DNA of 64,000 bases from Malacoraja senta (lineage: Eukaryota), in assembly GCA_038087875.1 (NCBI GenBank), contig CM075991.1, positions 13,704,001-13,768,000 on the forward strand. The letters run 5' to 3'. Numbering within the stretch: the stretch's first letter is position 1; each line of letters opens with the position of its first letter. The position numbers and the translations under genes are program-made. Below the pieces are notes generated by a model that made no database searches, had not been told where the DNA came from, and saw only the letters and a list, made by a program, of their open reading frames with translations. Of the stretch, positions 1 through 45,918 are shown in pieces.

Positions 1-2064
1 TCGTTAGGGTTTAGGGTCGTTAGGGTTTAGGGTCGTTAGGGTTTAGGGTCGTTAGGGTTTAGGGGTCGTTAGGGTTTAGGGTCGTTAGGGTTTAGGGTCG
101 TTAGGGTTTAGGGTCGTTAGGGTTTAGGGTCGTTAGGGTTTAGGGTCGTTAGGGTTTAGGGTCGTTAGGGTTTAGGGTCGTTAGGGTTTAGGGTCGTTAG
201 GGTTTAGGGTCGTTAGGGTTTAGGGTCGTTAGGGTTTAGGGTCGTTAGGGTTTAGGGTCGTTAGGGTTTAGGGTCGTTAGGGTTTAGGGTTTAGGTTTTG
301 GGTCGTTAGGGTTTAGGGTCGTTAGGGTTTAGGGTCGTTAGGGTTTAGGGTCGTTAGGGTTTAGGGTCGTTAGGGTTTAGGGTCGTTAGGGTTTAGGGTC
401 GTTAGGGTTTAGGGTCGTTAGGTTTAGGGTCGTTAGGGTTTAGGGTCGTTAGGGTTTTAGGGTCGTTAGGGTTTAGGGTCGTTAGGGTTTAGGGTCGTTA
501 GGGTTTAGGGTCGTTAGGGTTTAGGGTCGTTAGGGTTTAGGGTCGTTAGGGTTTAGGGTCGTTAGGGTTTAGGGTCGTTAGGGTTTAGGGTCGTTAGGGT
601 TTAGGGTCGTTAGGGTTTAGGGTCGTTAGGGTTTAGGGTCGTTAGGGTTTAGGGTCGTTAGGGTTTAGGGTCGTTAGGGTTTAGGGTCGTTAGGGTTTAG
701 GGTCGTTAGGGTTTAGGGTCGTTAGGGTTTAGGGTCGTTAGGGTTTAGGGTCGTTAGGGTTTAGGGTCGTTAGGGTTTAGGGTCGTTAGGGTTTAGGGTC
801 GTTAGGGTTTAGGGTCGTTAGGGTTTAGGGTCGTTAGGGTTTAGGGTCGTTAGGGTTTAGGGTCGTTAGGGTTTAGGGTCGTTAGGGTTTAGGGTCGTTA
901 GGGTTTAGGGTCGTTAGGGTTTAGGGTCGTTAGGGTTTAGGGTCGTTAGGGTTTAGGGTCGTTAGGGTTTAGGGTCGTTAGGGTTTAGGGTCGTTAGGGT
1001 TTAGGGTCGTTAGGGTTTAGGGTCGTTAGGGTTTAGGGTCGTTAGGGTTTAGGGTCGTTAGGGTTTAGGGTCGTTAGGGTTTAGGGTCGTTAGGGTTTAG
1101 GGTCGTTAGGGTTTAGGGTCGTTAGGGTTTAGGGTCGTTAGGGTTTAGGGTCGTTAGGGGTTTAGGGTCGTTAGGGTTTAGGGTCGTTAGGGTTTAGGGT
1201 CGTTAGGGTTTAGGGTCGTTAGGGTTTAGGGGTCGTTAGGGTTTAGGGTCGTTAGGGTTTAGGGTCGTTAGGGTTTAGGGTCGTTAGGGTTTAGGGTCGT
1301 TAGGGTTTAGGGTCGTTAGGGTTTAGGGGTCGTTAGGGTTTAGGGTCGTTAGGGTTTAGGGTCGTTAGGGTTTAGGGTCGTTAGGGTTTAGGGTCGTTAG
1401 GGTTTAGGGTCGTTAGGGTTTAGGGTCGTTAGGGTTTAGGGTCGTTAGGGTTTAGGGTCGTTAGGGTTTAGGGTCGTTAGGGTTTAGGGTCGTTAGGGTT
1501 TAGGGTCGTTAGGGTTTAGGGTCGTTAGGGTTTAGGGTCGTTAGGGTTTAGGGTCGTTAGGGTTTAGGGTCGTTAGGGTTTAGGGTCGTTAGGGTTTAGG
1601 GTCGTTAGGGTTTAGGGTCGTTAGGGTTTAGGGTCGTTAGGGTTTAGGGTCGTTAGGGTTTAGGGTCGTTAGGGTTTAGGGTCGTTAGGGTTTAGGGTCG
1701 TTAGGGTTTAGGGTCGTTAGGGTTTAGGGTCGTTAGGGTTTAGGGTCGTTAGGGTTTAGGGTCGTTAGGGTTTAGGGTCGTTAGGGTTTAGGGTCGTTAG
1801 GGTTTAGGGTCGTTAGGGTTTAGGGTCGTTAGGGTTTAGGGTCGTTAGGGTTTAGGGTCGTTAGGGTTTAGGGGGGTTAGGGTTTAGGGGGTTAGGGTTT
1901 AGGGGGGTTAGGGTTTAGGGGGGTTAGGGTTTAGGGGGGTTAGGGTTTAGAGGGGTTAGGGTTTAGAGGGGTTAGGGTTTAGAGGGGTTAGGGTTTAGAG
2001 GGTTAGGGTTTAGAGGGGTTAGGGTTTAGAGGGGTTAGGGGTTAGGGTTAGGGTTAGGGTTAGG
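1..2064 (+). repeat. Telomere-variant tandem array: (TCGTTAGGGTTTAGGG)n 16-mer to ~1870, then 16-mer variants TTAGGGTTTAGGGGGG and TTAGGGTTTAGAGGGG, ending in ~4 canonical TTAGGG
   Basis: Read directly. G-rich strand is on +, the 16-bp period is kept across variants, and canonical TTAGGG occurs at ~2035-2064. Confidence 0.97.
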
Positions 2065-2257
2065 TTGTGATTTATCGGACAGTGGGACAACATGCCCTCT
2101 GGTGCTTATTGATCTCCCCCTGGGGATTCCTTTTCACTGTGTACTGTCACTTGGTATTTGGCCCACGGTTTCATCACCCTTGTCCAAATCTATTTGCCTT
2201 ACACTTGCCCTTCCATAGATTTGTGCGAGTCAGTCAGGATCCACCCTAGGTTTGAGT

Positions 2258-3153
2258 TTATGCTAGATTTAGGCCATTAGGCTCTTTTGTCTGTAGCGCT
2301 TCTATCCATAGCCTCTCTGCTCTCTTGCGTCTCCCTGTTGTTGCCAGTGGATTGAGGTAGTGGTCAATGTATTCTGCTACCCCATAGGATTCGCTACTAC
2401 AGTCTGACACTATGGGCCTACCTGGCGGTATTTCTCCAGGCACTGTCCACGTGTCTGGGTTTTTGTGTATCTTTGGGAGCATGTAGAATTTCCTCGCCCT
2501 GGGTTGTGTTCCTGTTAGGTATTCTACTTGTTTCTCTAGGATGTATCCTGATGTCTTAAGCTCTTCCAAAATGTCCCCTATTTCCTTTTGTGTTTCTTTA
2601 TATATGGGCTCATCTAACTTAGTGTAGTGTTCTATCTTGTTCAGTTGTCTATGTGCCTCGAAGAGGTACTGTTGTCTGTCCATGATAACTATACTGCTCC
2701 CCTTGTCTGCTGGTTTGATCACTATCTCGTTATTATCTCTCAGCTCTGTCAAGGCCTGCCTCTCTTTTCTGGTGATGTTGGACTTATCTTTTGTTGTGGG
2801 CATATCCTCAATGGCTGATGCCTGTCTCTGTTATAAATTCTGTTATCTGTCCAGGGACATCCTCGTCGTCTGGGGTCCACCCTGTGAGTGGCCTAAAGGG
2901 TATAATTTCTGCAGGGCTCTGCGCCACTGAAGTGGTGTATTAACTTAATGGATCGGTAAAATCTGTGTAGGTCCCCCTGCACTTGTTCCTTGTGGGATTT
3001 GGGAGTAGGGACGAAGGTGAGGCCTCTGTTCAATACCCTCTCTTGGGTTTCGGTAAGGGAGAATGTTTGAGAAAGGTTGATGATTGTTTTCCCTAATTGT
3101 GGGCCCTGCCTCTCTTGGCATGGTGTCCCTAACAGTTTAAATGCTTCATCCAC
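2258..3153 (-). pseudogene. PLE ORF2, copy 1 (internally deleted RT/GIY-YIG; two 1-bp indels versus consensus)
   Basis: Motifs IINLS..LTETQERVLNRGLTFVPTP, IKPADKGSSIVIMD, FYMLPKIHK and PGRPIVS, then directly ERLWIEALQTKEPNGLN*. Confidence 0.85.
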
Positions 3154-4908
3154 TCTCTGATCATGGCTCGGGCTGTGGGTTCTGTCCAGTGGATGTGGTC
3201 TACGTTTACTTTAAACTGGCTGGTGGGGATAGTGGGAATGTGTTTCTGGGTCTGTATGTAGTCATTAAGCTTTCTGAGTGTGACCTGCTCTGGTGCTGGG
3301 AGAGACTGGCTGAAGTTGATCATAGGGACCCATATGCTGGCATTAGGGAATTTACGACTGGCCATCTTGATTAGTGTTTGGAGTTGTTTGATGGCAGTCT
3401 GTGGTCTTTGTTCCTTATTGTTAATGCCAAACGAGAGAATGACTTTTTGAGTTTCTGGGCATTGGATCAATTTGTCAAGGATGGAAGTGCCATGTATGCA
3501 TTTGGCTCCTGGATAGCTGTCCAATTGTATGTTGTTGTTGTTGGAGAATTTGGGGATCCTGGCAATGTTGGAATCTCCAATTATTAAAACAGGCTTGCTG
3601 GGTTGTAGTTTCCAGGTAACATTTTTCTGACATGTGTGTGGGTGTTTAGTTACTTCAGCCAGTCTCTTCCCTGGACCCCTCTGTGTGTGCTGCTGAAAGT
3701 CGTCCTGAGAGTTACTGACTGTGTCTGTAGTCGGGGCCCTCTGGTGCTGTGTGCAGGCCCTACGTGCTGGTCTAACCCTCGGTGCTGGGACCCCCTGTGT
3801 TAGAGTGGAAAGGGTTGGTGTGAGGGAAGGGGTAGCAGTACCGGACCTGTTTCCCTGTGGTACCGCGGTCGTGACCTCCTTTCCGGTTGTCTCCGTGGTC
3901 GGTTCGGTCTCCCCCCTGGAGGGTCTGCGCTCGGCCCGTGGTCTCCGGGGGAGAGGGCCGTGGGATTCGTGGCGTGAGGAGATGCTCCGGTAGATAAGGG
4001 CGGATGTGCTGGGGGAATCGGAGCGCGTGGGCCGTGTCCAGTCATCCGACCAGGTCTCGGTCTCGGACCGGAAGTGGGCCTGGGGCTCGTGTACCGGGGG
4101 GACCGGCTGGGCCGGCTGCTGCGGTCGCAACACCACGATCTGGGGGCTGTTGGGGGGGGTTATGTCGGGGCTGGCGGGAGCGGAGCCGTGGGCGGCGCGG
4201 CCGCGGGGAGCGGGGCCGCGGGGAGCGGAGCGGGACGCGCTCTGGACGGGGTCGGGACGGGTGGTGACCCAAGCGGTGCGTGGCCGCTCGATCTGGCTTT
4301 CCTGTGAAATAGTAAACAAGTCTTGCGGGATATTTACTGCCACATTCGACGTTACAGCCGCTGGCCTACGGGGCTGGGCCTCCCGTAGGCTGCTGCGCTG
4401 TTCAGGCCCAGTCTCTGAGGTCAGGTTCAAAACTCGATGTCTGAGGTCCTCCAATCTGATTTTAAATTTATCTCCCAAATTTCTCTTGTTCCAGATTAGG
4501 GCCTTGGCGACCGCTTCCTGTACACGATCCGTAGGTTGGCCCTCACGGTATTCATCCTCAAGATGCTCCAGACTATTTTGGTAATGTTCAATCAAAATTT
4601 GTCGTGTTTGTTTAGCCCAGGTTTCAGCATTAGAAGCTAATTTTTTTAATGTTTCCTGGGTGGGATTTGCTGGTTTTACAAAGTATGTTAATATCTTGGC
4701 CTGCCTCGTGATACCCTTAGGGGGTACGTTCCGTTCCTTTAGAACTCCTAGATGGTGTAAAGCCTGGGCCATTTTATAAATAACTCTAACAGCAACTGCA
4801 AAGGAATCCCTCTGTCTAGATTGATTCCTGTGCTGGTTGCGATTCACCCCATTAACTGTTGTTAAACAATCCCCTTCTCCCCCCTTCCCTCTGCATGCCA
4901 GAACTCAT
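3129..4908 (-). CDS. PLE ORF1, copy 1 (SGNH/GDSL esterase-domain protein; 1-bp insertion near 4854 versus copy 2)
   Basis: Protein matches 9277..11055. ATG at 4908 is put out of frame by an extra A (attaactgtt versus attactgtt). Confidence 0.85.
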
Positions 4909-5045
4909 TTCTGGCCTAGTCGATTATGCTGTAATGCTAATACAGACAAATCGAAGTATCAATTATCTCTAGCGTCGTAGGGTTAACACCAAGGTGCTCA
5001 CCAATTCTTTGGTTATTTGCCAGCTCGCGGAGACCGCTTGCCGAA

Positions 5046-5108
5046 CTCTTCCCGACTGGGCAACGATTTTCCAGTTTCGCTATCACTGTAGCTTCGTCAG
5101 GGAAAGAG
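5046..5108 (-). ncRNA. Type I hammerhead ribozyme (copy 1)
   Basis: Minus strand reads CUCUUUCC-CUGACGA-A-GCUA(CAGUGA)UAGC-GAAA-CUGG(AAAAUCGUUGC)CCAG-UC^GGGAAGAG. All three stems pair, the core is canonical, and GUC cleavage is predicted between 5054 and 5053. Confidence 0.93.
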
Positions 5109-5442
5109 ATCTAGTCCTAGCCGGTTAGGGTTTTTAAAGGGTAGGTTGATGCTCCTCCCTTTCTGGGTGGAGCTTGCCATGTGTTGGGTCCTAGGACCGG
5201 TCACTTTGGTTGGGCACACCCTGTTTCTTGTTTGGACTGGTTAGCCCTCTTCCTTTGTTGTGTTAGTTACCACATGTCTCTGGTATCTTGTATCCTTTAT
5301 TGCTAATGTTTTCAGCCTCTGTTGATCAATAAATGTGCAAAAATCTCTTGTCCACTATTATGTTCTGCAAGTCTTTAAGTTGTGTCTGTGCTCTGCCAAC
5401 ATGTTTCTAGTCTGTGTGACGCCAAAGGCTCTTCTGGGTAGG

Positions 5443-7884
5443 GGATCCTGGCTGGGGTAGGGGTGGGTATCGTGTTGTGGATTTGTCAGGGTCTCCTCCC
5501 TCTCTTTCGTGCCTGTCTGGTCTATGTGGACGTTTGGTAGGTTCCTCGTATAATGGCTGCTAGGGGGTTGGGGGGGGGTTTCTGGGTAGTTCGGGGTGTT
5601 TTTTGGGGTTGTTTGGGGTGATTCGGTGGGGGTCTGCTGTTAGGTTTAGGTTGTAGGGGAGGGGGGGTTTATCAGTTGTTTAGGGGGAATGTTTTGGGTT
5701 GTTCGGGTTGTTTTTTTAGGGTTGTTTGGGGTGATTCAGTGGGGTCTACTGTTAGGTTTAGGTTGTAGGGGATGGGGGGGGTTTATCTGTTTTTTGTGGG
5801 GGATGTTTTGGGTTGTTCGGGTGTTTTTTTGGGTTTGGGGCGATTCAGTGGGGTCTGCTGTTGGGGTTAGGGTAGTAGGGCAGGGGGGGGGGGGTTTATC
5901 AGTTATATTGGGGAAATGTTTTGGGTTTGGGGTGTTCTTTGGGGTGATCCAGTGGTGTCTGCGCATTAGGTTTAGGTTGTAGGGGGGGGGGTTTCCTTTG
6001 TTTGGGGGAGATGTTTTGAGTTTTTCGGGGTGTTTCTTTTGTTGTTTGGGGTGAGGGGGTCCTGGCTAGGGTAGGGGTGGGTATCGTGTTGTGGATTTGT
6101 CAGGGTCTCCTCCCTCTCTTTCGTGCCTGTCTGGTCTATGTGGACGTTTGGTAGGTTCCTCGTATAATGGCTGCTAGGGGGTTGGGGGGTTTTCTCTGGG
6201 TAGTTCGGGGTGTTTTTTGGGGTTGTTTAGGGTGATTCGGTGGGGGTCTGCTGTTAGGTTTAGGTTGTAGGGGAGGGGGGGGGTTTTCAGTTGTTTAGGG
6301 GGGATGTTTTGGGTTGTTTTTTAGGGTTGTTTGGGGTGATTCAGTGGGGTCTACTGTTAGGTTTAGGTTGTAGGGGATGGGGGGGGTTTATCTGTTGTTT
6401 GTGGGGGATGTTTTGGGTTGTTCGGGTGTTTTTTTGGTTTTGGGGCGATTCAGTGGGGTCTGCTGTTGGGGTTAGGGTAGTAGGGCAGGAGGGGGTTTAT
6501 CAGTTATATTGGGGAAATGTTTTGGGTTTGGGGTGTTCTTTGGGGTGATCCAGTGGTGTCTGCGCATTAGGTTTAGGTTGTAGGGGGGGGGGGGGTTTCT
6601 TTGTTTGGGGGAGATGTTTTGAGTTTTTCGGGGTGTTTCTTTTGTTGTTTGGGGTGAGGGGGTCCTGGCTAGGGTAGGGGTGGGTATCGTGTTGTGGATT
6701 TGTCAGGGTCTCCTCCCTCTCTTTCGTGCCTGTCTGGTCTATGTGGGCGTTTGGTAGGTTCCTCGTATAATGGCTGCTAGGGGGTTGGGGGGTTTTCTCT
6801 GGGTAGTTCGGGGTGTTTTTTGGGGTTGTTTGGGGTGATTCGGTGGGGGTCTGCTGTTAGGTTTAGGTTGTAGGGGAGGGGGGGGTTTATCAGTTGTTTA
6901 GGGGGGATGTTTTGGGTTGTTTTTTAGGGTTGTTTGGGGTGATTCAGTGGGGTCTACTGTTAGGTTTAGGTTGTAGGGGATGGGGGGGTTTATCTGTTGT
7001 TTGTGGGGGATGTTTTGGGTTGTTCGGGTGTTTTTTTGGTTTTGGGGCGATTCAGTGGGGTCTGCTGTTGGGGTTAGGGTAGTAGGGCAGGAGGGGGGTT
7101 TTATCAGTTATATTGGGGAAATGTTTTGGGTTTGGGGTGTTCTTTGGGGTGATCCAGTGGTGTCTGCGCATTAGGTTTAGGTTGTAGGGGGGGGGGGGGG
7201 GGTTCCTTTGTTTGGGGGAGATGTTTTGAGTTTTTCGGGGTGTTTCTTTTGGTTGTTTGGGGTGAGGGGGTCCTGGCTAGGGTAGGGGTGGGTATCGTGT
7301 TGTGGATTTGTCAGGGTCTCCTCCCTCTCTTTCGTGCCTGTCTGGTCTATGTGGGCGTTTGGTAGATTCCTCGTATAATGGCTGCTAGGGGGTAGGGGGG
7401 TTTTCTCTGGGCAGTTCGGGGTGTTTTTTGGGGTTGTTTGGGGTGATTCGGTGGGGGTCTGCTGTTAGGTTTAGGTTGTAGGGGAGGGGGGTTTATCAGT
7501 TGTTTAGGGGGATGTTTTGGGTTGTTCGGGTTGTTTTTTAGGGTTGTTTGGGGTGATTCAGTGGGGTCTACTGTTAGGTTTAGGTTGTAGGGGATGGGGG
7601 GGGGGGTTTATCTGTTGTTTGTGGGGGATGTTTTGGGTTGTTCGGGTGTTTTTTTGGGTTCGGGGCGATTCAGTGGGGTCTGCTGTTGGGGTTAGGGTAG
7701 TAGGGCAGGGGGGGGGGGAGTTTATCAGTTATATTGGGGAAATGTTTTGGGTTTGGGGTGTTCTTTGGGGTGATCCAGTGGTGTCTGCGCATTAGGTTTT
7801 AGGTTGTAGGGGAGGAGGGGGGCTCCGTTGTTTGGGGGAGATGTTTTGAGTTTTTCGGGGTGTTTCTTTTGTTGTTTGGGGTGA
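5443..7884. repeat. Four tandem ~605-bp G/T-rich repeats made of ~120-bp subrepeats with degenerate telomere-like motifs
   Basis: Units start at ~5443, 6057, 6660 and 7268 (TCCTGGCT.GGGTAGGGGTGGGTATCG). Recurrent TTAGGTTTAGGTTGTAGGGG, GGGGTTAGGGTAG and TTTAGGG. Confidence 0.93.
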
Positions 7885-8406
7885 TTCAGTGGGGTCTGCT
7901 GGGGGGGGGGCCTATCCGTGGTTTGGTTATGATTATCATGGGGTGAGTTGTGCTTTGCCTATCCAGTCTGACCATCCTTTGGCTCCCTCTCTGGTCCTCC
8001 CTGTCTCCCTATCCTAGTTTTAGAGTGTCCCTCACTTCAATCCTATGATTATTCGAGCCCACTCTATTTCGGTTTGTACTGTTATTCTCCATCATCCCCC
8101 CTTTGGTTTGGGTTTCACCCTCCTGACTCCATTTGAATCTTTTCTTGTGGCCTGCTCCTTCTGCGGTTTTGATTTGCCTGAGTGATGAAGCCCGTGTCAC
8201 TGTAAAGGTTAGGTTGTGATTTATCGGACAGTGGGACAACATGCCCTCTGGTGCTTATTGATCTCCCCCTGGGGATTCCTTTTCACTGTGTACTGTCACT
8301 TGGTATTTGGCCCACGGTTTCATCACCCTTGTCCAAATCTATTTGCCTTACACTTGCCCTTCCATAGATTTGTGCGAGTCAGTCAGGATCCACCCTAGGT
8401 TTGAGT

Positions 8407-9301
8407 TTATGCTAGATTTAGGCCATTAGGCTCTTTTGTCTGTAGCGCTTCTATCCATAGCCTCTCTGCTCTCTTGCGTCTCCCTGTTGTTGCCAGTGGA
8501 TTGAGGTAGTGGTCAATGTATTCTGCTACCCCATAGGATTCGCTACTACAGTCTGACACTATGGGCCTACCTGGCGGTATTTCTCCAGGCACTGTCCACG
8601 TGTCTGGGTTTTTGTGTATCTTTGGGAGCATGTAGAATTTCCTCGCCCTGGGTTGTGTTCCTGTTAGGTATTCTACTTGTTTCTCTAGGATGTATCCTGA
8701 TGTCTTAAGCTCTTCCAAAATGTCCCCTATTTCCTTTTGTGTTTCTTTATATATGGGCTCATCTAACTTAGTGTAGTGTTCTATCTTGTTCAGTTGTCTA
8801 TGTGCCTCGAAGAGGTACTGTTGTCTGTCCATGATAACTATACTGCTCCCCTTGTCTGCTGGTTTGATCACTATCTCGTTATTATCTCTCAGCTCTGTCA
8901 AGGCCTGCCTCTCTTTTCTGGTGATGTTGGACTTATCTTTTGTTGTGGGCATATCCTCAATGGCTGATGCTGTCTTCTGTTATAAATTCTGTTATCTGTC
9001 CAGGGACATCCTCGTCGTCTGGGGTCCACCCTGTGAGTGGCCTAAAGGGTATAATTTCTGCAGGCTCTGCGCCACTGAAGTGGTGTATTAACTTAATGGA
9101 TCGGTAAAATCTGTGTAGGTCCCCCTGCACTTGTTCCTTGTGGGATTTGGGAGTAGGGACGAAGGTGAGGCCTCTGTTCAATACCCTCTCTTGGGTTTCG
9201 GTAAGGGAGAATGTTTGAGAAAGGTTGATGATTGTTTTCCCTAATTGTGGGCCCTGCCTCTCTTGGCATGGTGTCCCTAACAGTTTAAATGCTTCATCCA
9301 C
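8407..9301 (-). CDS. PLE ORF2, copy 2: RT N-terminal region fused in frame to the GIY-YIG C-terminal tail (~297 aa consensus; one 1-bp frameshift near 8975)
   Basis: ORF-track pieces 8957..9301 and 8407..8952. RT motifs A/B/C (DxxSLY, QxxGxxMG, YxDD) are absent. Overlaps the ORF1 stop by 25 nt. Confidence 0.85.
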
Positions 9302-11055
9302 TCTCTGATCATGGCTCGGGCTGTGGGTTCTGTCCAGTGGATGTGGTCTACGTTTACTTTAAACTGGCTGGTGGGGATAGTGGGAATGTGTTTCTGGGTC
9401 TGTATGTAGTCATTAAGCTTTCTGAGTGTGACCTGCTCTGGTGCTGGGAGAGACTGGCTGAAGTTGATCATAGGGACCCATATGCTGGCATTAGGGAATT
9501 TACGACTGGCCATCTTGATTAGTGTTTGGAGTTGTTTGATGGCAGTCTGTGGTCTTTGTTCCTTATTGTTAATGCCAAACGAGAGAATGACTTTTTGAGT
9601 TTCTGGGCATTGGATCAATTTGTCAAGGATGGAAGTGCCATGTATGCATTTGGCTCCTGGATAGCTGTCCAATTGTATGTTGTTGTTGTTGGAGAATTTG
9701 GGGATCCTGGCAATGTTGGAATCTCCAATTATTAAAACAGGCTTGCTGGGTTGTAGTTTCCAGGTAACATTTTTCTGACATGTGTGTGGGTGTTTAGTTA
9801 CTTCAGCCAGTCTCTTCCCTGGACCCCTCTGTGTGTGCTGCTGAAAGTCGTCCTGAGAGTTACTGACTGTGTCTGTAGTCGGGGCCCTCTGGTGCTGTGT
9901 GCAGGCCCTACGTGCTGGTCTAACCCTCGGTGCTGGGACCCCCTGTGTTAGAGTGGAAAGGGTTGGTGTGAGGGAAGGGGTAGCAGTACCGGACCTGTTT
10001 CCCTGTGGTACCGCGGTCGTGACCTCCTTTCCGGTTGTCTCCGTGGTCGGTTCGGTCTCCCCCCTGGAGGGTCTGCGCTCGGCCCGTGGTCTCCGGGGGA
10101 GAGGGCCGTGGGATTCGTGGCGTGAGGAGATGCTCCGGTAGATAAGGGCGGATGTGCTGGGGGAATCGGAGCGCGTGGGCCGTGTCCAGTCATCCGACCA
10201 GGTCTCGGTCTCGGACCGGAAGTGGGCCTGGGGCTCGTGTACCGGGGGGACCGGCTGGGCCGGCTGCTGCGGTCGCAACACCACGATCTGGGGGCTGTTG
10301 GGGGGGGTTATGTCGGGGCTGGCGGGAGCGGAGCCGTGGGCGGCGCGGCCGCGGGGAGCGGGGCCGCGGGGAGCGGAGCGGGACGCGCTCTGGACGGGGT
10401 CGGGACGGGTGGTGACCCAAGCGGTGCGTGGCCGCTCGATCTGGCTTTCCTGTGAAATAGTAAACAAGTCTTGCGGGATATTTACTGCCACATTCGACGT
10501 TACAGCCGCTGGCCTACGGGGCTGGGCCTCCCGTAGGCTGCTGCGCTGTTCAGGCCCAGTCTCTGAGGTCAGGTTCAAAACTCGATGTCTGAGGTCCTCC
10601 AATCTGATTTTAAATTTATCTCCCAAATTTCTCTTGTTCCAGATTAGGGCCTTGGCGACCGCTTCCTGTACACGATCCGTAGGTTGGCCCTCACGGTATT
10701 CATCCTCAAGATGCTCCAGACTATTTTGGTAATGTTCAATCAAAATTTGTCGTGTTTGTTTAGCCCAGGTTTCAGCATTAGAAGCTAATTTTTTTAATGT
10801 TTCCTGGGTGGGATTTGCTGGTTTTACAAAGTATGTTAATATCTTGGCCTGCCTCGTGATACCCTTAGGGGGTACGTTCCGTTCCTTTAGAACTCCTAGA
10901 TGGTGTAAAGCCTGGGCCATTTTATAAATAACTCTAACAGCAACTGCAAAGGAATCCCTCTGTCTAGATTGATTCCTGTGCTGGTTGCGATTCACCCCAT
11001 TACTGTTGTTAAACAATCCCCTTCTCCCCCCTTCCCTCTGCATGCCAGAACTCAT
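9277..11055 (-). CDS. PLE ORF1, 592 aa: helical N-terminus, Pro/Arg/Thr-rich linker, C-terminal SGNH/GDSL esterase
   Basis: Uninterrupted ORF with SGNH blocks VLIIGDSN, SYPGA, ILSFGINN and VDHIHW. Confidence 0.9.
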   Translation of the reverse strand: MSSGMQREGGRRGLFNNSNGVNRNQHRNQSRQRDSFAVAVRVIYKMAQALHHLGVLKERNVPPKGITRQAKILTYFVKPANPTQETLKKLASNAETWAKQTRQILIEHYQNSLEHLEDEYREGQPTDRVQEAVAKALIWNKRNLGDKFKIRLEDLRHRVLNLTSETGPEQRSSLREAQPRRPAAVTSNVAVNIPQDLFTISQESQIERPRTAWVTTRPDPVQSASRSAPRGPAPRGRAAHGSAPASPDITPPNSPQIVVLRPQQPAQPVPPVHEPQAHFRSETETWSDDWTRPTRSDSPSTSALIYRSISSRHESHGPLPRRPRAERRPSRGETEPTTETTGKEVTTAVPQGNRSGTATPSLTPTLSTLTQGVPAPRVRPARRACTQHQRAPTTDTVSNSQDDFQQHTQRGPGKRLAEVTKHPHTCQKNVTWKLQPSKPVLIIGDSNIARIPKFSNNNNIQLDSYPGAKCIHGTSILDKLIQCPETQKVILSFGINNKEQRPQTAIKQLQTLIKMASRKFPNASIWVPMINFSQSLPAPEQVTLRKLNDYIQTQKHIPTIPTSQFKVNVDHIHWTEPTARAMIREWMKHLNC

Positions 11056-11192
11056 TTCTGGCCTAGTCGATTATGCTGTAATGCTAATACAGACAAATCG
11101 AAGTATCAATTATCTCTAGCGTCGTAGGGTTAACACCAAGGTGCTCACCAATTCTTTGGTTATTTGCCAGCTCGCGGAGACCGCTTGCCGAA

Positions 11193-11255
11193 CTCTTCCC
11201 GACTGGGCAACGATTTTCCAGTTTCGCTATCACTGTAGCTTCGTCAGGGAAAGAG
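11193..11255 (-). ncRNA. Type I hammerhead ribozyme (copy 2)
   Basis: Identical to 5046-5108. Predicted cleavage is 145 nt upstream of the ORF1 ATG. Confidence 0.93.
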
Positions 11256-11594
11256 ATCTAGTCCTAGCCGGTTAGGGTTTTTAAAGGGTAGGTTGATGCT
11301 CCTCCCTTTCTGGGTGGAGCTTGCCATGTGTTGGGTCCTAGGACCGGTCACTTTGGTTGGGCACACCCTGTTTCTTGTTTGGACTGGTTAGCCCTCTTCC
11401 TTTGTTGTGTTAGTTACCACATGTCTCTGGTATCTTGTATCCTTTATTGCTAATGTTTTCAGCCTCTGTTGATCAATAAATGTGCAAAAATCTCTTGTCC
11501 ACTATTATGTTCTGCAAGTCTTTAAGTTGTGTCTGTGCTCTGCCAACATGTTTCTAGTCTGTGTGACGCCAAAGGCTCTTCTGGGTAGGGGATC

Positions 11595-11794
11595 NNNNNN
11601 NNNNNNNNNNNNNNNNNNNNNNNNNNNNNNNNNNNNNNNNNNNNNNNNNNNNNNNNNNNNNNNNNNNNNNNNNNNNNNNNNNNNNNNNNNNNNNNNNNNN
11701 NNNNNNNNNNNNNNNNNNNNNNNNNNNNNNNNNNNNNNNNNNNNNNNNNNNNNNNNNNNNNNNNNNNNNNNNNNNNNNNNNNNNNNNNNNNNNN
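11595..11794. other. Assembly/scaffold gap (200 N)
   Basis: Run of exactly 200 N. Confidence 0.99.
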
Positions 11795-15451: not shown

Positions 15452-15763
15452 ATCCCATAGTGCCACGATTGGTATCCAAAGATGACCAGTGCTCGGGAAG
15501 ACTTGAGATGCGATATGGTGAAACCTGGGGAACCGTGTGCGACCTGCACTGGGATATGGATGATGCCAACGTGGTGTGCAATGCGCTTCAATGCGGAGCC
15601 GCTCTATCTGTGGTGGGAGGGGCTTATTTCGGAGAGGGAACTGGGATTGTGCGGAATGATGTCTTTGGATGTCAGGGTAATGAGTCAAGCCTTTGGCACT
15701 GCCCCCATTCTTCAGGAACTCGTCATTGCAACCACGGGAATGATGTCGGTGTGATCTGTTCTG
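15452..15763 (+). CDS. WC1/CD163-like SRCR receptor, SRCR exon 1 of 6 visible
   Basis: ag|AT CCC...TCT G|gtgag, phase 1-1. RLV...CSGRLEM..WGTVCD..W.....VVC..LQCG. Confidence 0.9.
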
Positions 15764-16935
15764 GTGAGTGCCGCCTTTGGGGGAAATATTTTTAACCTCG
15801 ATTGCACTTGGGAGACAAAGATCAGTTGTTGCCATTTATTTTTAAAATGGCTTATAAAAATGCTTCAATACAATTCAGTGCCATGTCATTTTGATGTGAT
15901 AAGTTTCTCAATATGGAGTGAGGAAGGGGAAATTAAGAATACCTACTTTAGGTGACTTCCATGCGCGGAAAGAGCAATCCGCCAGCAAATCCGGACAGAT
16001 CTGCCCATTGATAAAAATGAATGTAGAACAATTCAAGTTGATTGTGAACAAAAGTACCCTGCATAGAATCTCAGTGTTGTGAGTGGAGAGTTTGGTGTTA
16101 AAAGAGCAGCCATGACCGGCTGTAGAGGTGAGGGAGTCGCACACAAACGTACTGACGATGATGCTGGCGACGAGGACATTACTGACGATGAAACTCTGTA
16201 CAACACATAGAAAGGGATGCAAGAACGATGCATGAGGATAAAACATCGGATTTATCCTGAGATTTCTTAACTTGGTTCGGAATGAATTTGGTCATGCAGC
16301 ATTTTTATAAAAACTGAAGGGGTTCGGAATGGAAACGTCGCCTATCAATTCCTCCATAGATGCTGCTCGACCCGCGTAATTATTCCAACACTTTGATTTT
16401 TGCACTGGGTCAAGTGTGGGTTTTTACAATTCTTGAGAGAAGATGTTCTTGCCTCCTGTATAACGTTATGTCTCAACCAAAGGCCGTCATGGTAGTGAAA
16501 CATCCGAAGCCATCAGTATTCCAGACGGGATCTCAACCTACTTCATCGAAACAAGGAACTGCAGATGCTGTTTTTTGTTAAGACACAAAGTGCTGGAGTA
16601 ACTCCACGGGGTTGGCAGCATCCCCGAAGAACATGGATAGGTTAAATTTCAGGCCGGGACCCTTCTTCAGACTGTTTATGGGGTGGGAGGGAGCAGGGGG
16701 TAGTGGGTGGGAATTCTTTGGGTCTCTGATCGAGGAAAATCCGGAGAGCCTTGAGACCTTCCTGGTGAGGGAGATGTGAAGGGACCTGACCTGCACGGTA
16801 AAGATAGGACATAAGACATTTATTGTCACATACACCAGTTGGTGTAGTGAAATTTGAGTTGCCATTGCAGCACACAAATAAGTTAAACATAACACTATGG
16901 AATTTAACATTAAACATAAAAAACACCCCCCCACA

Positions 16936-26679: not shown

Positions 26680-29600
26680 ACATAGATACATAGAAAATAG
26701 GTGCAGGAGTAGGCCATTCGGCCCTTCGAGCCTGCACCGCCATTCAATATGATCATGGCTGATCATCCAACTCAGTATCCCGTACCTGCCTTCTCTCCAT
26801 ACCCCCTGATCCCTTTAGCCACAAGGGCCACATCTAACTCCCTCTTACATATAGCCAATGAACTGGCCTCAACTACCCTCTGTGGCAGAGAGTTCCAGAG
26901 ATTCACCACTCTCTGTGTGAAAAAGTTTTTTCTCATCTCGGTCTTAAAGGATTTCCCCCTTATCCTTAAGCTGTGACCCCTTGTCCTGGACTTCCCCAAC
27001 ATCGGGAACAATCTTCCTGCATCTAGCCTGTCCAACCCTATAAGAAATTTGTACGTTTCTATAAGATCCCCTCTCAATCTCCTAAATTCTAGCGAGTATA
27101 AGCCAAGTCTATCCAGTCTTTCTTCATATGAATGTCCTGACATCCCAGGAATCAGTCTGGTGAACCTTCTCTGCACTCCCTCTATGGCTATAATGTCCTT
27201 CCTCAGATTTGGAGACCAAAACTGTACACAATACTCCAGGTGTGGTCTCACCAAGACCCTGTACAACTGCAGTAGAACCTCCCTGCTCCTATACTCAAAT
27301 CCTTTTGCTATGAAAGCTAACATACCATTCGCTTTCTTCACTGCCTGCTGCACCTGCATGCCTACTTTCAATGACTGGTGTACCATGACACCCAGGTCTC
27401 GCTGCATCTCCCCTTTTCCTAATCGGCCACCATTTAGATAATAGACTTCTTTCCTGTTTTTGCCACCAAAGTGGATAACCTCACATTTATCCACATTATA
27501 CTGCATCTGCCAAACATTTGCCCACTCACCCAGCCTATCCAAGTCACCTTGCAGTCTCCTAGCATCCTCCTCACAGCTAACACTGCCCCCCAGCAGTGTC
27601 ATCCGCAAACTTGGAGATGTTGCCTTCAATTCCCTCATCCAGTTCATTAATATAAATTATAAATAGCTGGGGTCCCAGCACTGAGCCTTGCGGTACCCCA
27701 CTAGTCACTGCCTGCCATTGTGAAAAGGACCCGTTTACTCCTACTCTTTGCTTCCTGTTTGCCAGCCCATTCTCTATCCACATCAATACTGAACCCCCAA
27801 TACCGTGTGCTTTAAGTTTGTATACTAATCTCTTATGTGGGACCTTGTCGAAAGCCTTCTGAAAGTCCAGATACAACACATCCACTGGTTCTCCCTTATC
27901 CACTCTACCAGTTACATCCTCGAAAAATTCTATAAGATTCGTCAGACATGATTTACCTTTCGTAAATCCATGCTGACTTTGTCCAATGATTTCACCACTT
28001 TCCAAATGTGCTGCTATCCCATCTTTAGTAACTGACTCTAGCAGTTTCCCCACTACCGATGTTAGCCTAACTGGTTTGTAATTCCCCGTTTTCTCTCTTC
28101 CTCCCTTCTTAAAACGTGGGGTTACATTTGCTACCCTCCAATCCTCAGGAACTACTCCAGAATCTAAAGAGTTTTGAAAAATTATCACTAATGCATCCAC
28201 TGTTTCTGGAGCTACTTCCTTAAGTACTCTGGGATGCAGCCTATCGGGCCCTGGTGATTTATCTGCCTTTAATCCATTCAATTTACCCAACACCACTTCC
28301 CAACTAACCTGGATTTCACTCAGTTCCTCCATCTCCTTTGACCCGCGGTCCCCTGCTATTTCCGGCAGATTATTTATGTCTTCCTCAGTGAAGACGGAAC
28401 CAAAGTAGTTATTCAATTGGTCCGCCATATCCTTGTTCCCCATGATCAATCCACCTGTTTCTGACTGCAAGGGACCTACATTTGTTTTAACTAATCTCTT
28501 TCTCTTCACATATCTATAAAAACTTTTGCAGTCAGTTTTTATGTTCCCTGCCAGTTTTCTTTCATAATCTATTTTCCCTTTCCTAATTAAGCCCTTTGTC
28601 CTCCTCTGCTGGGCTCTGAATTTCTCCCAGTCCTCTGGTATGCTGCTTTTTCTGGCCAATTTGTACGCATTGATACTATCCCTGATTTGCCTTGTTATCC
28701 ACGGATGCACTACCTTCCCTGATTTATTCTTTTGCCAAACTGGGATGAACAATTTTTGTAGTTCATCCATGCAGTCTTTAAATGCCTTCCATTGCATATC
28801 CACCGTCAACCCTTTTAGAACTAATTGCCAGTCAATCTTGGCCAATTCACGTCTCATACCCTCAAAGTTACCTTTCTTTAAGTTCAGAACTGTTGTTTCT
28901 TAATTAACAATGTCACTCTCCATCCTAATGAAGAACTCAACCATATTATGGTCACTCTTGCCCAAGGGGGCACGCACAACAAGACTGCTAACTAACCCTT
29001 CCTCATTACTCAATACCCAGTCTAGAATAGCCTGCTCTCTCGTTGGTTCCTCTACATGTTGGTTTAGATAACTATCCCACATACATTCCAAGAAATCCTC
29101 TTCCTCAGCACCCCTGCCAATTTGATTCACCCAATCTATATGTAGATTGAAGTCACCCATTATAACTGTTTTGCCTTTGTTGCACGCATTTCTAATTTCC
29201 TGTTTGATGCCATCCCCAACTTCACCACTACTGCTAGGTGGCCTGTACACAACACCCACCAGCGTTTTCTGCCCCTTAGTGTTTCGCAGCTCTACCCATA
29301 CCGATTCCACATCCTCCAAGCTAATGTCCTTCCTTTCCACTGCGTTAATCTCCTCTCTAACCAGCAACGCTACCCCACCTCCTTTTCCTTTCTCTCTATC
29401 CCTCCTGAATATTGAATATCCCTGGATGTTCAGCTCCCAGCCTTGGTCACCCTGGAGCCATGTCTCCGTGATCCCAACTATATCATAATCATTAATAGCT
29501 ATCTGCACGTTCAACTCATCCACCTTATTACGAATGCTCCTTGCATTGAGACACAAAGCCTTCAGGCTTGTTTTTACAACGCTCTTACCCCTTATACAAT

Positions 29601-31153
29601 TATGTTGAAAAGTGGCCCTTTTTGATATTTGCCCTGGATTTGTCTGCCTGTCACTTTTACTTTTCACCTTGCTACCTATTGCTTCCGCCCGCATTTTACA
29701 CCCCTCTGTTTCTCTGCTCACCCATTTAAGAACCCCACCACCTCTTATTCTCTGTTTATTATTGTTTTCTTCTTTCCCCCCTACATGTTGGGTCTGAGTG
29801 CTTTCCTTCTCTGCCTCCTGCCTCACACACTGTCTAATAGCTTTCTCTATTTGAGTCCCTCCCCCCAACCATTCTAGTTTAAAGTCTCCCCAGTAGCCTT
29901 TGCAGATCTCCCAGCCAGGATATCGGTTCCCCTCAGGTTCAACTGCAACCCATCCTTTTTGTACAGGTCGCACCTTCCACAAAAGAGGTCCCAATGATCC
30001 AGAAATTTGAATCCCTGCCCTCTGCACCAGTCCTTCAGCCACGCATTTATCCTCCACCTCGCTCCATTCCTACTCTCACTGTCGCGTGGCACAGGCAGTA
30101 ATCCCGAGATTGTTACCTTTGCTGTCCTACTCTTTAACTCATCCTCCTAACTCCCTAAATTCTCCTTTCAGGACCTCTTCTCTTTTTTTACCTATGTCAT
30201 TGGTACCTATATGTACCACGACCTCAGGCTCCTCTCCCTCCCCTTTCAGGATATCTTGGACACGTTGAGACACATCACAGACCCTGGCACCAGGGAGGCA
30301 AACTACCATCCGGGTCTCCCGACTGCGTCCACAGAATCGCCTGTCTGACCCCCTAACTATAGAGTCCCCTATTAGTATTGCCCTCCTCTTCTTTTCCTTA
30401 CCCTTCTGAGCAACAAGACCGGTCTCTGTACTGGAGGCCCGGCCGCTGTCGCTACCCCCAGGTAGGCTGTCCCCCCCAACAGTGCTCAAACAGGAGTACT
30501 TATTGTCAAGGTGTACAGCCACCGGGGTACTCTCTAGTCCCTGCCTGTGCCCCTTGCTTCTCCAAACCGTGATCCACTTGCCTGCCTCCTGTGGTCTTGG
30601 AGTGACCACCTCCCTGTAACTCCTCTCAATGACTTCCTCGCTCTCCCTGACCAGACGGAGGTCATCGAGCTGCTGCTCCAGGTTCCTAATACGGTCCCTT
30701 AGGAGCCCCATCTCGATACACCTGGCGCAGATGTGGACGTCTGGAGGGCTATCAGACTCGGTGACTTCCCACATCTGACATCCAGAACAGTAAACTGCCC
30801 TGGCCCTCATACTCCCCTTACCCTGGATACAATACATCTGACATCCAGAACAGTAAACTGCCCTGGCCCTCATACTCCCCCCTTACCCTGGATACAATAC
30901 ATCTGACATCCAGAACAGTAAACTGCCCTGGCCCTCATACTCCCCTTACCCTGGATACAATACATCTGACATCCAGAACAGTAAACTGCCCTGGCCCTCA
31001 TACTCCCCTTACCCTGGATACAATACATCTGACATCCAGAACAGTAAACTGCCCTGGCCCTCATACTCCCCTTACCCTGGATACAATACATCTGACATCC
31101 AGAACAGTAAACTGCCATGGCCCTCATACTCCCCTTACCCTGGATACAATACA
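26680..31153 (-). mobile_element. Near full-length CR1/HER1-like LINE in the SRCR gene intron: ORF1 (Zn finger plus SGNH esterase), APE endonuclease and RT, with several frameshifts
   Basis: ORF1: [80 protein letters not shown]. Confidence 0.95.
30771..31153. repeat. Six tandem 63-bp repeats at the LINE 5' end
   Basis: Units start at 30771, 30834, 30899, 30962, 31025 and 31088. Each encodes MRARAVYCSGCQMYCIQGKGS on -. Confidence 0.95.
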
Positions 31154-36329: not shown

Positions 36330-38700
36330 ATACTGGAGCAGCTCAGTGGGACAGGCAGCATCTCTGGATAGAAGGAATGGGTGACGTTTCGGATCGAGAC
36401 CCTTCTTTAGACTTGTGTTGGTGACGATAACAACCTCAATGATTGTTCCACTGGTTCTTCCCCTTCCCCCTCAAACCATGTGACCCCAGCTCTTCCCCAC
36501 CCACACTATAGGCCTCATACCCCCTTCCTCCCTGACCACCCACCGCCTCGGCCTCAGTCCACTCACCTGCCTTCCTCCGGCCCCAAACCCCATGCTTGCC
36601 ATGTGTTCACCAATCCCCTGACCTCCCCCTCTCGGATACGGAACATTCTGTCCTCAGCAGAGGCCTCACCTTTGTTCCCCTCCGTCCCCACCTCAATGAG
36701 TTCCGCGTCCGCCACGATGTGGAGCTCTTCTTGTCTTGCCTCCGCATCAAAGCATTTTTCCATGGGAAGGAGTCCTCGCCCCCAGTGATGACCCCTTCTC
36801 CCGTCTCCAATGGACCCTTCCTCTTGGACTCCCCCTCATGGTCATCTACCGGCTTTAGGCCTTTTTATTTTAAACTGCCGGTGGAACATCAGCCGCCTCA
36901 ACTTCTCCACTCCCCTTTCTTACTCTAACCCCCCCCCCCCCTCCTGACGTACAGCCCTCCACTCACTCTGCAACAACCCAGACTGGGTGATCAAAACTGC
37001 CGACAAGGGAGGTGCCGTGGTAATCTGGCGCGCTGATCTCTACAAAGCTGAGGCCACGCGTCAATTCTCAGACACTTCCTCCTAGTTATCCTTGGACCAT
37101 GACCCCACAGATGAGCACCATGCCACCATCTCTAACACTATCACTGACTTCATCACTTCCGTCTTCCTGCCCTCCCAAGCCTCCAACCTCATCGTTCCCC
37201 AGCCCCGCACGGCCCAATTTTACCTTCTCCCCAAAATCCACAAACCTGACTGTCCCGGCAGACCCATTGTTTCTGCCTGTTCGTGCCCCACCGAACATAT
37301 TTCCACATACCTCGACTCCATCCAATCCCCCTTGGTTAAATCCCTCCCTACGCATGTTCAAGACACCTCACACGTTCTTAGCCTCCTCCATGACTTCCGT
37401 TTTCTAGGCCCCCATTCCCTCATCTTCACCAAGGATGTCCAGTCACTCTACACCTCCATCCGCCACCAGGAGGGTCTTAAAGCCCTCCGTTTCTTGCTCG
37501 ACCACAGAAGCAGCCAATCCCCGTCTACTGATAATCCCCTCTGCCAAACGGAGCTGGTCCTTACCCTTAACAACTTTTCATTTGACTCCTCCCATTTCCT
37601 CCAAATCCAAGGCGTAGCTATGGGCATGCACATGGGCCCAAGCTATGCCAGCCTCTTTTGAAGGGTTAGTCGAACAATCCTTGTTCGATGTGTACCACGG
37701 CCCTATCCCTGAACTCTACCTCTGCTACATCGACAACTGCATTGGTGGTACCTCCTGCACCCATACACAATTCGCTGACTTCATCCAATTCACCACTAAC
37801 TTCCATCCGGCACTCAAATACACATCTCCCTACAGTTTCTGGACCTCACTATCTCCATCGCAGGTGACAGAATACTGACCGGCATCTACTATAAACCCAA
37901 TGACTCCCATGGCTATCTGGAGTACACTTCTTCCCACCCTGCTTCCTGTAACTACATCCTCTACTCACACTTCCTCCGTCTACGCCACATCTGCACCCAG
38001 ATAAGGTGTCCCAGGGCATCGGAGATGTCCTCATTCTTTAGAGAACAGGGGGTCCCCTCTTCTACTATAGATGAGGCTCTCATCAGGGTCTGTTCTGTAC
38101 ACCGTAACTCTGCTCTCACTCCCCATCACCACAATCGTAACAAGGGCAGAGTCCCCCTTGTCCTCACCTTCCACCCTACCAACCGTCACATACAACAAAT
38201 AATCCCCCGACATTTTCGCCACCTCCAACGGGATCCCACCACTGGCCACATCTTCCCATCTCTTCTCCTTTCGGCTTTCCGCAGAGACCGCTCCCTCCGT
38301 AACTCCCTGGTCAATTCCTCCCTTCCCACCCAAACCACACCCTCTCCGGGCACTTTCCCTTGCAACCGCAGGAAATGATAAACGTATCGCTTTACCTCCC
38401 CCCTTGACTCCATTCAAGGACCCAAGCAGTCTTTCCAGGTGCTGCAGAGGTTCACCTGCTCCTCCTCCAACCTTATCAATTGCATCCGCTGCTCTCTAGG
38501 TGTCAGCTGCTCTACACCGGTGAGACCAAGCCTAGGCTTGGCGATCGCTTCGCCCAACACCTCTGCTCTGTTCGCAATAACCAACTTCATCTCCCGGTGA
38601 CTCAGCTCTTCAACTCCCCCTCCCATTCCGAATCCGACCTTTCTTTCCTGGGACTCCTCCATGGCCAGAGTGAGTCCCACCGTAAATTGGAGGAGCAGCT
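36330..38700 (+). mobile_element. Degenerate long copy of dispersed Penelope-like element (RT plus GIY-YIG), preceded by an inverted terminal-repeat fragment (36330-36412)
   Basis: VLSRGLTFVP, KTADKGGAVV, FYLLPKIHK, DVQSLYTSI, QIQGVAMG, YIDN, CSSSNLI.CI, YTGETK.RLGDRFAQHL. Multiple stops and frameshifts. Confidence 0.9.
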
Positions 38701-45241: not shown

Positions 45242-45918
45242 TGTTTAAGAAGCAGCTGCAGATGCTGGAAAATTGAAGGTAGACAAAAATGCTGGAGAAA
45301 CTCAACCGGTGAGGCAGCATCTATGGAGCAAAGTAAATAGGCAACGTTTCGGGTCGAAGCCCTTCTTCAGACTGATGTGAGGGTGGGGGGGGGGAGGAAG
45401 AAAGGAAGAGGTGGAGGCAGTGGGCTGAGAGAGAGCTGAGAAGGGCAGGTGAAAGCAGGGACTACCTGAATAGAGAATTCAATGTTCATACCGCTGGGGT
45501 GCAAACTGCCCAAGCGAAATATGAGGTGCTGCTCCTCCAATTTACGATGGTCCTCAGTCTGGCCATGGAGGAGGCCCAGGACAGAAAGGTCAGATTCGGA
45601 ATGGGAGGGGGAGTTGAAGTGTTGAGCAACCGGGAGATCAGTTTGGTTAGTGCGAACCGAGCGGAGGTGTTCAGCGAAACGATCGCCAAGCCTACGCTTG
45701 GTCTCACCGATGTAGAGCAGCTGACATCTAGAGCAGCGGATGCAATAGATGAGGTTGGAGGAAGTGCAGGTGAACCTCTGTCGCACCTGGAACGGCTGCT
45801 TGGGTCCTTGAATGGAGTCAAGGGGGTAGGTAAAGCGACAAGTGTAACATTTCTTGTGGTTGCAAGGGAAAGTGCCAGGAGTGGGGGTGGTTCGGGTGGA
45901 AAGGGACGAATTGACAAG
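45242..45918 (-). mobile_element. Penelope-like 3' fragment (GIY-YIG plus terminal repeat)
   Basis: CTSSNLIYCIRCSRCQLLYIGETKRRLGDRFAEHL...LEEQHLIFRLGSLHPSGMN. Confidence 0.9.

Follow-up and report, generated by a model that had tools for sequence, protein, structure and literature searches.

The window, the whole stretch of 64,000 nucleotides analysed here, begins with about 2 kb of G-rich repeats, which are followed by a 6149-bp unit, a partial second copy of that unit and a gap of 200 Ns. The features of this left-hand part are as follows.

1..2041, plus strand: telomere-like variant repeats, a 16-bp satellite TCGTTAGGGTTTAGGG in about 128 copies that grades into TTTAGGGGGG and TTTAGAGGGG variants
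2042..2064, plus strand: three canonical TTAGGG repeats and TTAGG, the sole canonical stretch adjoining the element
2058..2064, plus strand: GGTTAGG microhomology at the junction, which reads CCUAACC in the element RNA and lies about 190 nt past the ORF2 stop
2058..8206, minus strand: tandem unit copy 1, 6149 bp, a deleted Neptune-type Penelope-like element (PLE), a retrotransposon
8207..11594, minus strand: tandem unit copy 2, interrupted by the assembly gap at 11595-11794
8207..8213, minus strand: this heptamer within copy 2; here the element runs on past it

Outside 2042-2064, the roughly 2-kb tract consists of the 16-bp variant satellite TCGTTAGGGTTTAGGG and GGGG variants. Read along the G strand, telomeres usually pass from variant repeats on the inner side to canonical repeats on the outer side, as they do here. 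The position of these G-rich repeats at the left end suggests that a terminal contig was flipped, that the site is internal, or that the window begins inside the tract, and the first contig may be wrongly oriented in the assembly. This contig stops at a GATC about 10 nt into the start of a 605-bp repeat, and the 200-N gap follows (11591-11794). The 5' end of the tandem array falls beyond the gap, and a target-site duplication within a perfect repeat is ill-defined. Right of the gap lie other elements and an exon (26772-30069, 55214-56666, 45367-45984, 36948-37334 and 15460-15770). Besides a LINE that encodes endonuclease and reverse transcriptase (RT) domains and a further RT copy, there are numerous GIY-YIG fragments from a different PLE family, a distant RT fragment of the Neptune-like type (39%) and, judged by eye, an SRCR-like exon.

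Structure and identity of the element

Each unit carries an ORF1, a remnant of ORF2 and a predicted ribozyme, and copy 1 also includes a block of long repeats.

2258..3153, minus strand: ORF2 remnant of copy 1, an RT N-terminus fused to the last 27 residues of a GIY-YIG domain
8407..9301, minus strand: ORF2 remnant of copy 2, with the deletion join at 8490/8491
3129..4904, minus strand: ORF1 of copy 1, 591 aa from stop to stop
9277..11070, minus strand: ORF1 of copy 2
5046..5108, minus strand: predicted type I hammerhead ribozyme (motif and three-stem fold) with a CUGACGA/GAAA core and a GUC site ending at 5054
near 11193-11255, minus strand: second predicted hammerhead copy
5123..5132, minus strand: 10-nt telomere complement AACCCUAACC, not used as a junction, 23 nt 5' of the hammerhead core
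5436..7907, minus strand: about four 605-bp repeats made of subrepeats of about 109 bp, with one 10-nt telomere match per 605-bp unit

A search of longer proteins identified P0001 (740 aa), which is 95% identical to the window ORF2. Relative to this protein, the deletion joins residue 270 to residue 714 in frame, so the window copies are in-frame deletion derivatives without the RT core and most of the endonuclease; the ORF2 remnant of copy 1 additionally has single-base indels relative to copy 2. The full-length relatives P0001 and P0122 contain an RT, a CX4CX2C linker (CGQRRCGAC in both) and a GIY-YIG domain above the Pfam cut-off. The linker is lacking in most fish-like homologues (alignment A1). 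Conserved residues of the GIY-YIG domain are Y651, Y662, G664, R673, E722 and N738, and the CCHH residues C655, C658, H677 and H693 are invariant across 15 sequences. The ORF2 cluster includes a named Amblyraja radiata protein, which makes a skate the likely host.

An RT with a C-terminal GIY-YIG domain, a CX2-5CxxC linker and the CCHH residues are described as hallmarks of Neptune elements (PMC8557442). Tandem organisation and a hammerhead motif, both Neptune features, are present in the 6149-bp unit, and by eye the RT motifs match the published consensus of a killifish Neptune, which itself has degenerate TTAGG-type repeats on its antisense strand (PMC12602865). By these sequence features the element is classed as an internally deleted Neptune-type PLE, not an Athena; the RT tree was built from relatives, with no named Neptune references. 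The initial annotation had proposed priming without an endonuclease, as for Athena, and this part is not supported: the family is of the Neptune type, its GIY-YIG domain looks intact, and undeleted copies occur in sequencing runs X1 and X2, where loose ends at 8490/8491 continue into the deleted RT and endonuclease sequence. Because such copies occur, a source of endonuclease acting in trans is plausible. The close relatives P0121-P0124 come from short contigs of 44,960 and 17,207 bp, the latter of which encodes three ORF2 products, consistent with tandem arrays.

The C-terminus of ORF1 contains a GDSL/SGNH-like domain, a weak Pfam match below the cut-off, and ORF1 homologues sit upstream of ORF2 in many relatives. 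The predicted hammerhead fold has a z of -1.39, and an Rfam search for a hammerhead returned no match at E up to 1. The heptamer used at the junction lies about 3 kb from a hammerhead on either side. Nearer to the ribozyme, in addition to the unused AACCCUAACC, an 8-nt telomere match about 70 nt downstream of the cut site is likewise unused. The sequence AAACCCTAACCGGC (5119-5132, minus strand) matches CCTAACCGGC of the 3'-UTR slot in the related loci L043, L054, L056, L057, L059 and L063; it adjoins the hammerhead and may be a second pairing site. A broken frame at 5260-5430 on the minus strand, immediately upstream of the ribozyme, resembles by eye a GIY-YIG remnant, and it is unlike the element's own ORF2 end.

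The junction at GGTTAGG and a second 3' end

Over 3.39 kb, copy 1 (2058-5447) and copy 2 (8207-11594) share 99.9% identity, and four single-base indels set them apart. Their identity begins exactly at GGTTAGG (2058 = 8207), which bears out the claim that the junction falls precisely on an internal copy of this heptamer. Left of the heptamer the bases are TTAG in copy 1 and TAAA in copy 2, and the overlap at the junction is 7 nt when perfect and 9 of 11 when mismatches are allowed. There is no poly(A) at the junction. The heptamer of copy 2 is predicted to be unpaired (0.85-0.98, compared with a mean of 0.51).

Telomere matches of at least 7 nt occupy 116 of the 6149 positions of the unit (1.9%), or 28 of 3677 positions outside the repeats (0.8%), and the probability that the junction coincides with a telomere match by chance is about 1-2%. 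Chance alone predicts one heptamer somewhere in the element, but not that the junction lands on it. Ten longer telomere matches (8-10 nt) in the unit are unused as junctions. In the comparison with sequencing runs, for which 20 of 108 loose ends and 32 of 1010 pieces were listed and the compared stretch left out the 605-bp repeats, none of the 20 listed loose ends (4 of 24 runs) fell at 8207. The exact junction pattern had no match in metagenome contigs.

Two sources of the repeats were rejected. The argument that telomerase healing is impossible, because on the G strand the repeats are found 5' of the element, is correct, and we rejected healing for this wrong polarity. Slippage of the RT on CCUAACC was also rejected, as we infer that it would yield TTAGG pentamers, not TTAGGG.

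A second 3' end recurs further downstream in the element.

8078..8430, minus strand: 3' segment with a recurring end at 8078

This end lies 129 nt beyond the heptamer. It is found in two head-to-tail joints (8427 to 8078 and 8408 to 8078, a unit of about 350 bp) and in one contig from run X3 with unlike flanks. The summed depth of 8078-8430 is about tenfold higher, although summed depth is not copy number, and the segment appears to be amplified as the head-to-tail unit of about 350 bp. One of the two tandem joints at 8078 directly follows a TTAGG-like 5-mer within the end of the element's own ORF2, and the other is without telomere-like bases. Within 8078-8430, the heptamer is the sole telomere match of at least 6 nt.

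The heptamer in related families

To survey relatives, we scanned metagenomes with the 15-sequence alignment, which gave at least 489 relatives. The 77 loci listed have 31-55% identity and form 63 clusters. No relatives were found in viral contigs. We searched for perfect CCCTAA-phase runs of at least 11 nt within 1 kb of the match in the 52 clusters that had at least 150 nt after it (11 were dropped). Among these listed loci, such runs occurred in 16 of 52 clusters in the sense orientation and in none antisense, compared with 0-1 for nine permuted hexamers and a mean of 0.27 over 30 shuffles.

The heptamer itself was scored in the 48 clusters with a matched ORF2 end and at least 200 nt beyond it (15 were dropped). 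Among the loci listed, CCTAACC lies within 350 nt past ORF2 in 20 of 48 clusters. As controls, the antisense strand and the final 350 nt of ORF2 gave 2 clusters each, and 102 non-telomeric permutations averaged 1.3 (maximum 6). The heptamer thus looks like a feature of the clade, judging from these counts. RT and endonuclease share one ORF in 19 of the 20 families that bear the heptamer and in 24 of the 28 that do not (among the loci listed); because retention is equally high without the heptamer, it does not tie the enzyme to telomere insertion.

We also found a 3'-UTR motif, GTGCCNGTGCA, with the repeat slot a little way behind it. Among the loci listed, the motif is present at up to one mismatch in 22 of 49 clusters in the sense orientation and in none antisense, and at up to two mismatches in 32 of 49 clusters, with 7 antisense. 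CCTAACC follows GTGCCNGTGCA within 75 nt in 15 of the 32 motif-bearing loci, and in L024, L025, L035 and L040 the motif is followed by (CT)n or (TATG)n. Both GTGCCNGTGCA and the CAGTGCC pattern that follows CCTAACC were derived after seeing the data. The window contains a likeness of each.

8289..8299, minus strand: weak, two-mismatch copy of the clade 3'-UTR motif GTGCCNGTGCA, 76 nt upstream of the heptamer
8196..8202, minus strand: CAGTGAC directly 3' of the heptamer, one mismatch from the relatives' CAGTGCC

The likeness of CAGTGAC, which lies 4 nt downstream of the heptamer, is to a pattern derived post hoc and would arise by chance at about 1.5%. In L071 (3220) and L077 (3486) the slot consists of CCTAA pentamers, which might match hosts of the TTAGG type.

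Three related contigs, L063, L068 and L072, each contain one continuing copy and one telomere-joined copy. In L063 and L068, perfect (CCCTAA)n sets in exactly behind CCTAACC, the same heptamer as in the window, and the switch to telomeric repeat in L072 has a 4-nt match. At the corresponding position L052 runs into a perfect repeat of 96 nt, and it lacks a continuing copy for comparison. These four loci hold the only perfect tracts of at least 30 nt in the 77 loci listed, and all have the polarity of the window. The proposal that CCUAACC in the RNA is where pairing with the telomere starts is supported both by the presence of the heptamer after ORF2 in 20 of 48 related families, among the loci listed, and by the exact joins in L063 and L068. 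In L068 and L072, 8-11 repeats are followed by an element that belongs to another family and is truncated at its 5' end; longer repeat tracts are not bridged by short-read contigs. These truncated elements (L068:5453 and L072:6645) start almost at the same point, which is the NLS tripeptide in the N-terminal part of ORF2. The telomere-joined copy of L072 (4432-6477) has a 682-aa RT ORF that ends before any GIY-YIG domain.

Among the listed loci, a CCCTAA run of at least 10 nt occurs somewhere in 9 of 9 members of the P0001 subclade, compared with 3 of 16 in its sister group; the positions of these runs vary, and none of the nine has a perfect junction tract. In L009 (1901-2006), L011 (2660) and L003 (1923-2163), all members of this subclade, CCCTAA-like runs lie inside ORF2 or ORF1 regions. 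The four junction loci sit outside the P0001 subclade. Several of the counted loci are close kin, so that the counts overstate the number of independent events.

Proposed priming at telomeric repeats and comparison with known systems

We tentatively favour a model in which the deleted Neptune-type copy would have entered TTAGGG repeats through an endonuclease nick and annealed internal priming at CCUAACC. The GIY-YIG endonuclease, supplied by intact copies, would nick the telomeric G strand; the freed end, ...GGTTAG or ...GGTTAGG-3', would pair with CCUAACC in the 3' UTR; and the paired end would prime reverse transcription inside the element RNA. The deleted copy would have been mobilised in trans and would lie at or near a chromosome end. 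The initial annotation described copy 1 as 3'-truncated at the heptamer. This holds only relative to copy 2, and the heptamer more probably serves as a regular point at which telomere insertions start.

The steps of this model differ in strength. Pairing of CCUAACC with a G-strand 3' end, whether made by a nick or natural, is probable, because the heptamer is conserved in a strand- and position-specific manner and in-phase junctions recur. As to where that 3' end came from, the balance tips modestly toward a nick, because the family keeps its endonuclease and a hammerhead-adjacent arrangement is absent, and because the same 3'-UTR motif precedes interstitial microsatellites, which have no free end. 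The microhomology cannot separate the two sources, because SART1Bm is described as starting internally at telomere-like bases following an endonuclease cut (PMC7265360). Several observations count against the favoured model. The roughly four canonical repeats between the variants and the element fit an eroded natural end better than a random nick in a long tract (n = 1), and the heptamer is absent from the 350-nt interval in 28 of 48 families, among the loci listed. The ten longer matches left unused, the joint at 8078 without telomere-like bases and the non-homologous starts of Poseidon PAc (PMC11167929) also weigh against it.

An endonuclease-free route like that of Athena, in which an eroded or deprotected telomere would offer its natural G-rich 3' overhang for pairing with CCUAACC and the RT would extend that overhang, is unlikely but deserves weight. 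The sole polarity that it allows is that of the window and of all four perfect tracts in the 77 loci listed, and it fits the gradient from variant to canonical repeats, with about four canonical repeats before the element. The arrangement in L068 and L072 resembles the chains described for Athena and Terminons (PMC6431247), although repeated nicking would also yield chains with short spacers and short-read contigs bridge only short tracts. The telomere-joined copy of L072, whose ORF ends before the endonuclease, also favours this route, as do the weak grouping of Neptune with the endonuclease-less Coprina and an endonuclease-less Neptune-like shrimp element cited in PMC8557442. Against it, the family has kept GIY-YIG, the site does not adjoin the hammerhead, the same motif precedes interstitial microsatellites in relatives, and the terminal position of the window is itself one that we infer.

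It is distinctly unlikely that the start site was set by protein binding or RNA structure, as in Poseidon, with the endonuclease alone selecting telomeric repeats. CCUAACC would then be an inherited scar of earlier targets, and pairing would be unnecessary. Such starts have a precedent in Poseidon PAc, described as the only EN+ PLE tested in vitro, which starts internally at RNA sites that are not homologous to the cut DNA (PMC11167929). A conserved motif a short distance upstream of the repeat slot, the longer matches left unused elsewhere and the match of just 4 nt in L072 would also fit. However, the junctions in the window, L063 and L068 are in phase at the last CCTAACC with the repeat register kept, and the degenerate tract is inherited across diverged families together with a fixed downstream motif.

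Joining at the DNA level, without reverse transcription, would link a TTAGGG end to the array by microhomology-mediated end joining, break-induced replication or telomere fusion. Any repair that uses homology leaves such a footprint, the segment 8078-8430 appears abundant and has the heptamer as its only match of at least 6 nt, and the G-rich repeats, as assembled, point toward the interior of the scaffold, as would suit a fusion remnant. Even so, we regard this as quite improbable, since it leaves unexplained why the motif after ORF2 is conserved by strand and position, why the same junction recurs in distant families, and why 10-nt matches were passed over. Finally, an assembly error, in which a short overlap led to the fusion of a satellite contig with the element, has very little chance of being correct: the junction is not among the 20 of 108 loose ends listed, and the short contig, which may be misoriented, stops at a gap, but the same junction type occurs in independent assemblies and usual assembly overlaps are far above 7 nt.

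A broader and rather doubtful idea is that Neptunes carry an exchangeable RNA guide slot behind the conserved 3'-UTR motif, a slot that holds the complement of the target repeat. Lineages with CCUAACC, including one in a skate-relative vertebrate, would then home to telomeres and build Athena-like terminal chains while keeping their endonuclease. If this were true, they would be living intermediates between endonuclease-bearing PLEs and the telomere-capping, endonuclease-free PLEs. An EN+ clade that attaches to telomeres, with a vertebrate member, would blur the split between EN+ and EN- PLEs and would bear on how these relatives of telomerase shifted between chromosome ends and interiors. Whether repeat targeting by Neptunes comes from the zinc-finger linker or from RNA-DNA pairing becomes a testable question, for which an intact ORF2, a 7-nt site, natural variants with other repeats and an existing in vitro PLE assay are at hand.

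The element shares with known EN+ Neptunes the RT and C-terminal GIY-YIG in one ORF, the CX4CX2C linker and CCHH residues, tandem arrays, a hammerhead and an association with simple repeats, as described in PMC8557442 and PMC4209133. It differs from them in that it targets the telomeric repeat and encodes the complement of that repeat in its 3' UTR, and in that the window copies are deleted. In the accounts given in PMC8557442 and PMC6431247, telomere attachment through reverse-complement repeats is assigned to endonuclease-free PLEs, and treated as peculiar to them, and a microsatellite bias is noted for Neptune; EN+ PLEs have been described as intrachromosomal. Our literature search, beyond whose scope lay the primary Athena paper and Repbase reports, found no account of telomere-targeting EN+ Neptunes.

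Among LINEs, SART1 and TRAS1 of the silkworm also bear an endonuclease and target telomeric repeats, and SART1 is described as starting inside its 3' UTR (PMC7265360). Those elements are APE-type LINEs with poly(A) tails, whereas the window element has a PLE-type RT with GIY-YIG. The 3' end of SART1 joins the G-rich repeat, the opposite polarity; TRAS shares the polarity of the window element. Poseidon PAc of Anolis is an EN+ PLE with more than one fixed internal start, comparable to 8207-8213 and 8078 here, but it is described as cutting AT-rich DNA and starting without primer homology (PMC11167929).

The EN- Athena, Coprina and Terminon elements resemble the window element in polarity, in the joining of the 3' end to the C-rich repeat with the G strand as primer, in carrying reverse-complement telomeric sequence in the RNA and in having a GDSL-like accessory ORF; chains with short repeat spacers are shared with relatives of the window element. 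They lack the endonuclease domain, whereas the window family keeps GIY-YIG fused to the RT. Priming of the Athena type, as initially annotated, is further disfavoured by the location of the used site, about 3 kb from either hammerhead, since the Athena hallmark is described as telomere-complementary repeats directly downstream of the ribozyme (PMC6431247). Taken together, these comparisons point to an element that is Neptune-type in its sequence and that possibly works like Athena at the priming step.
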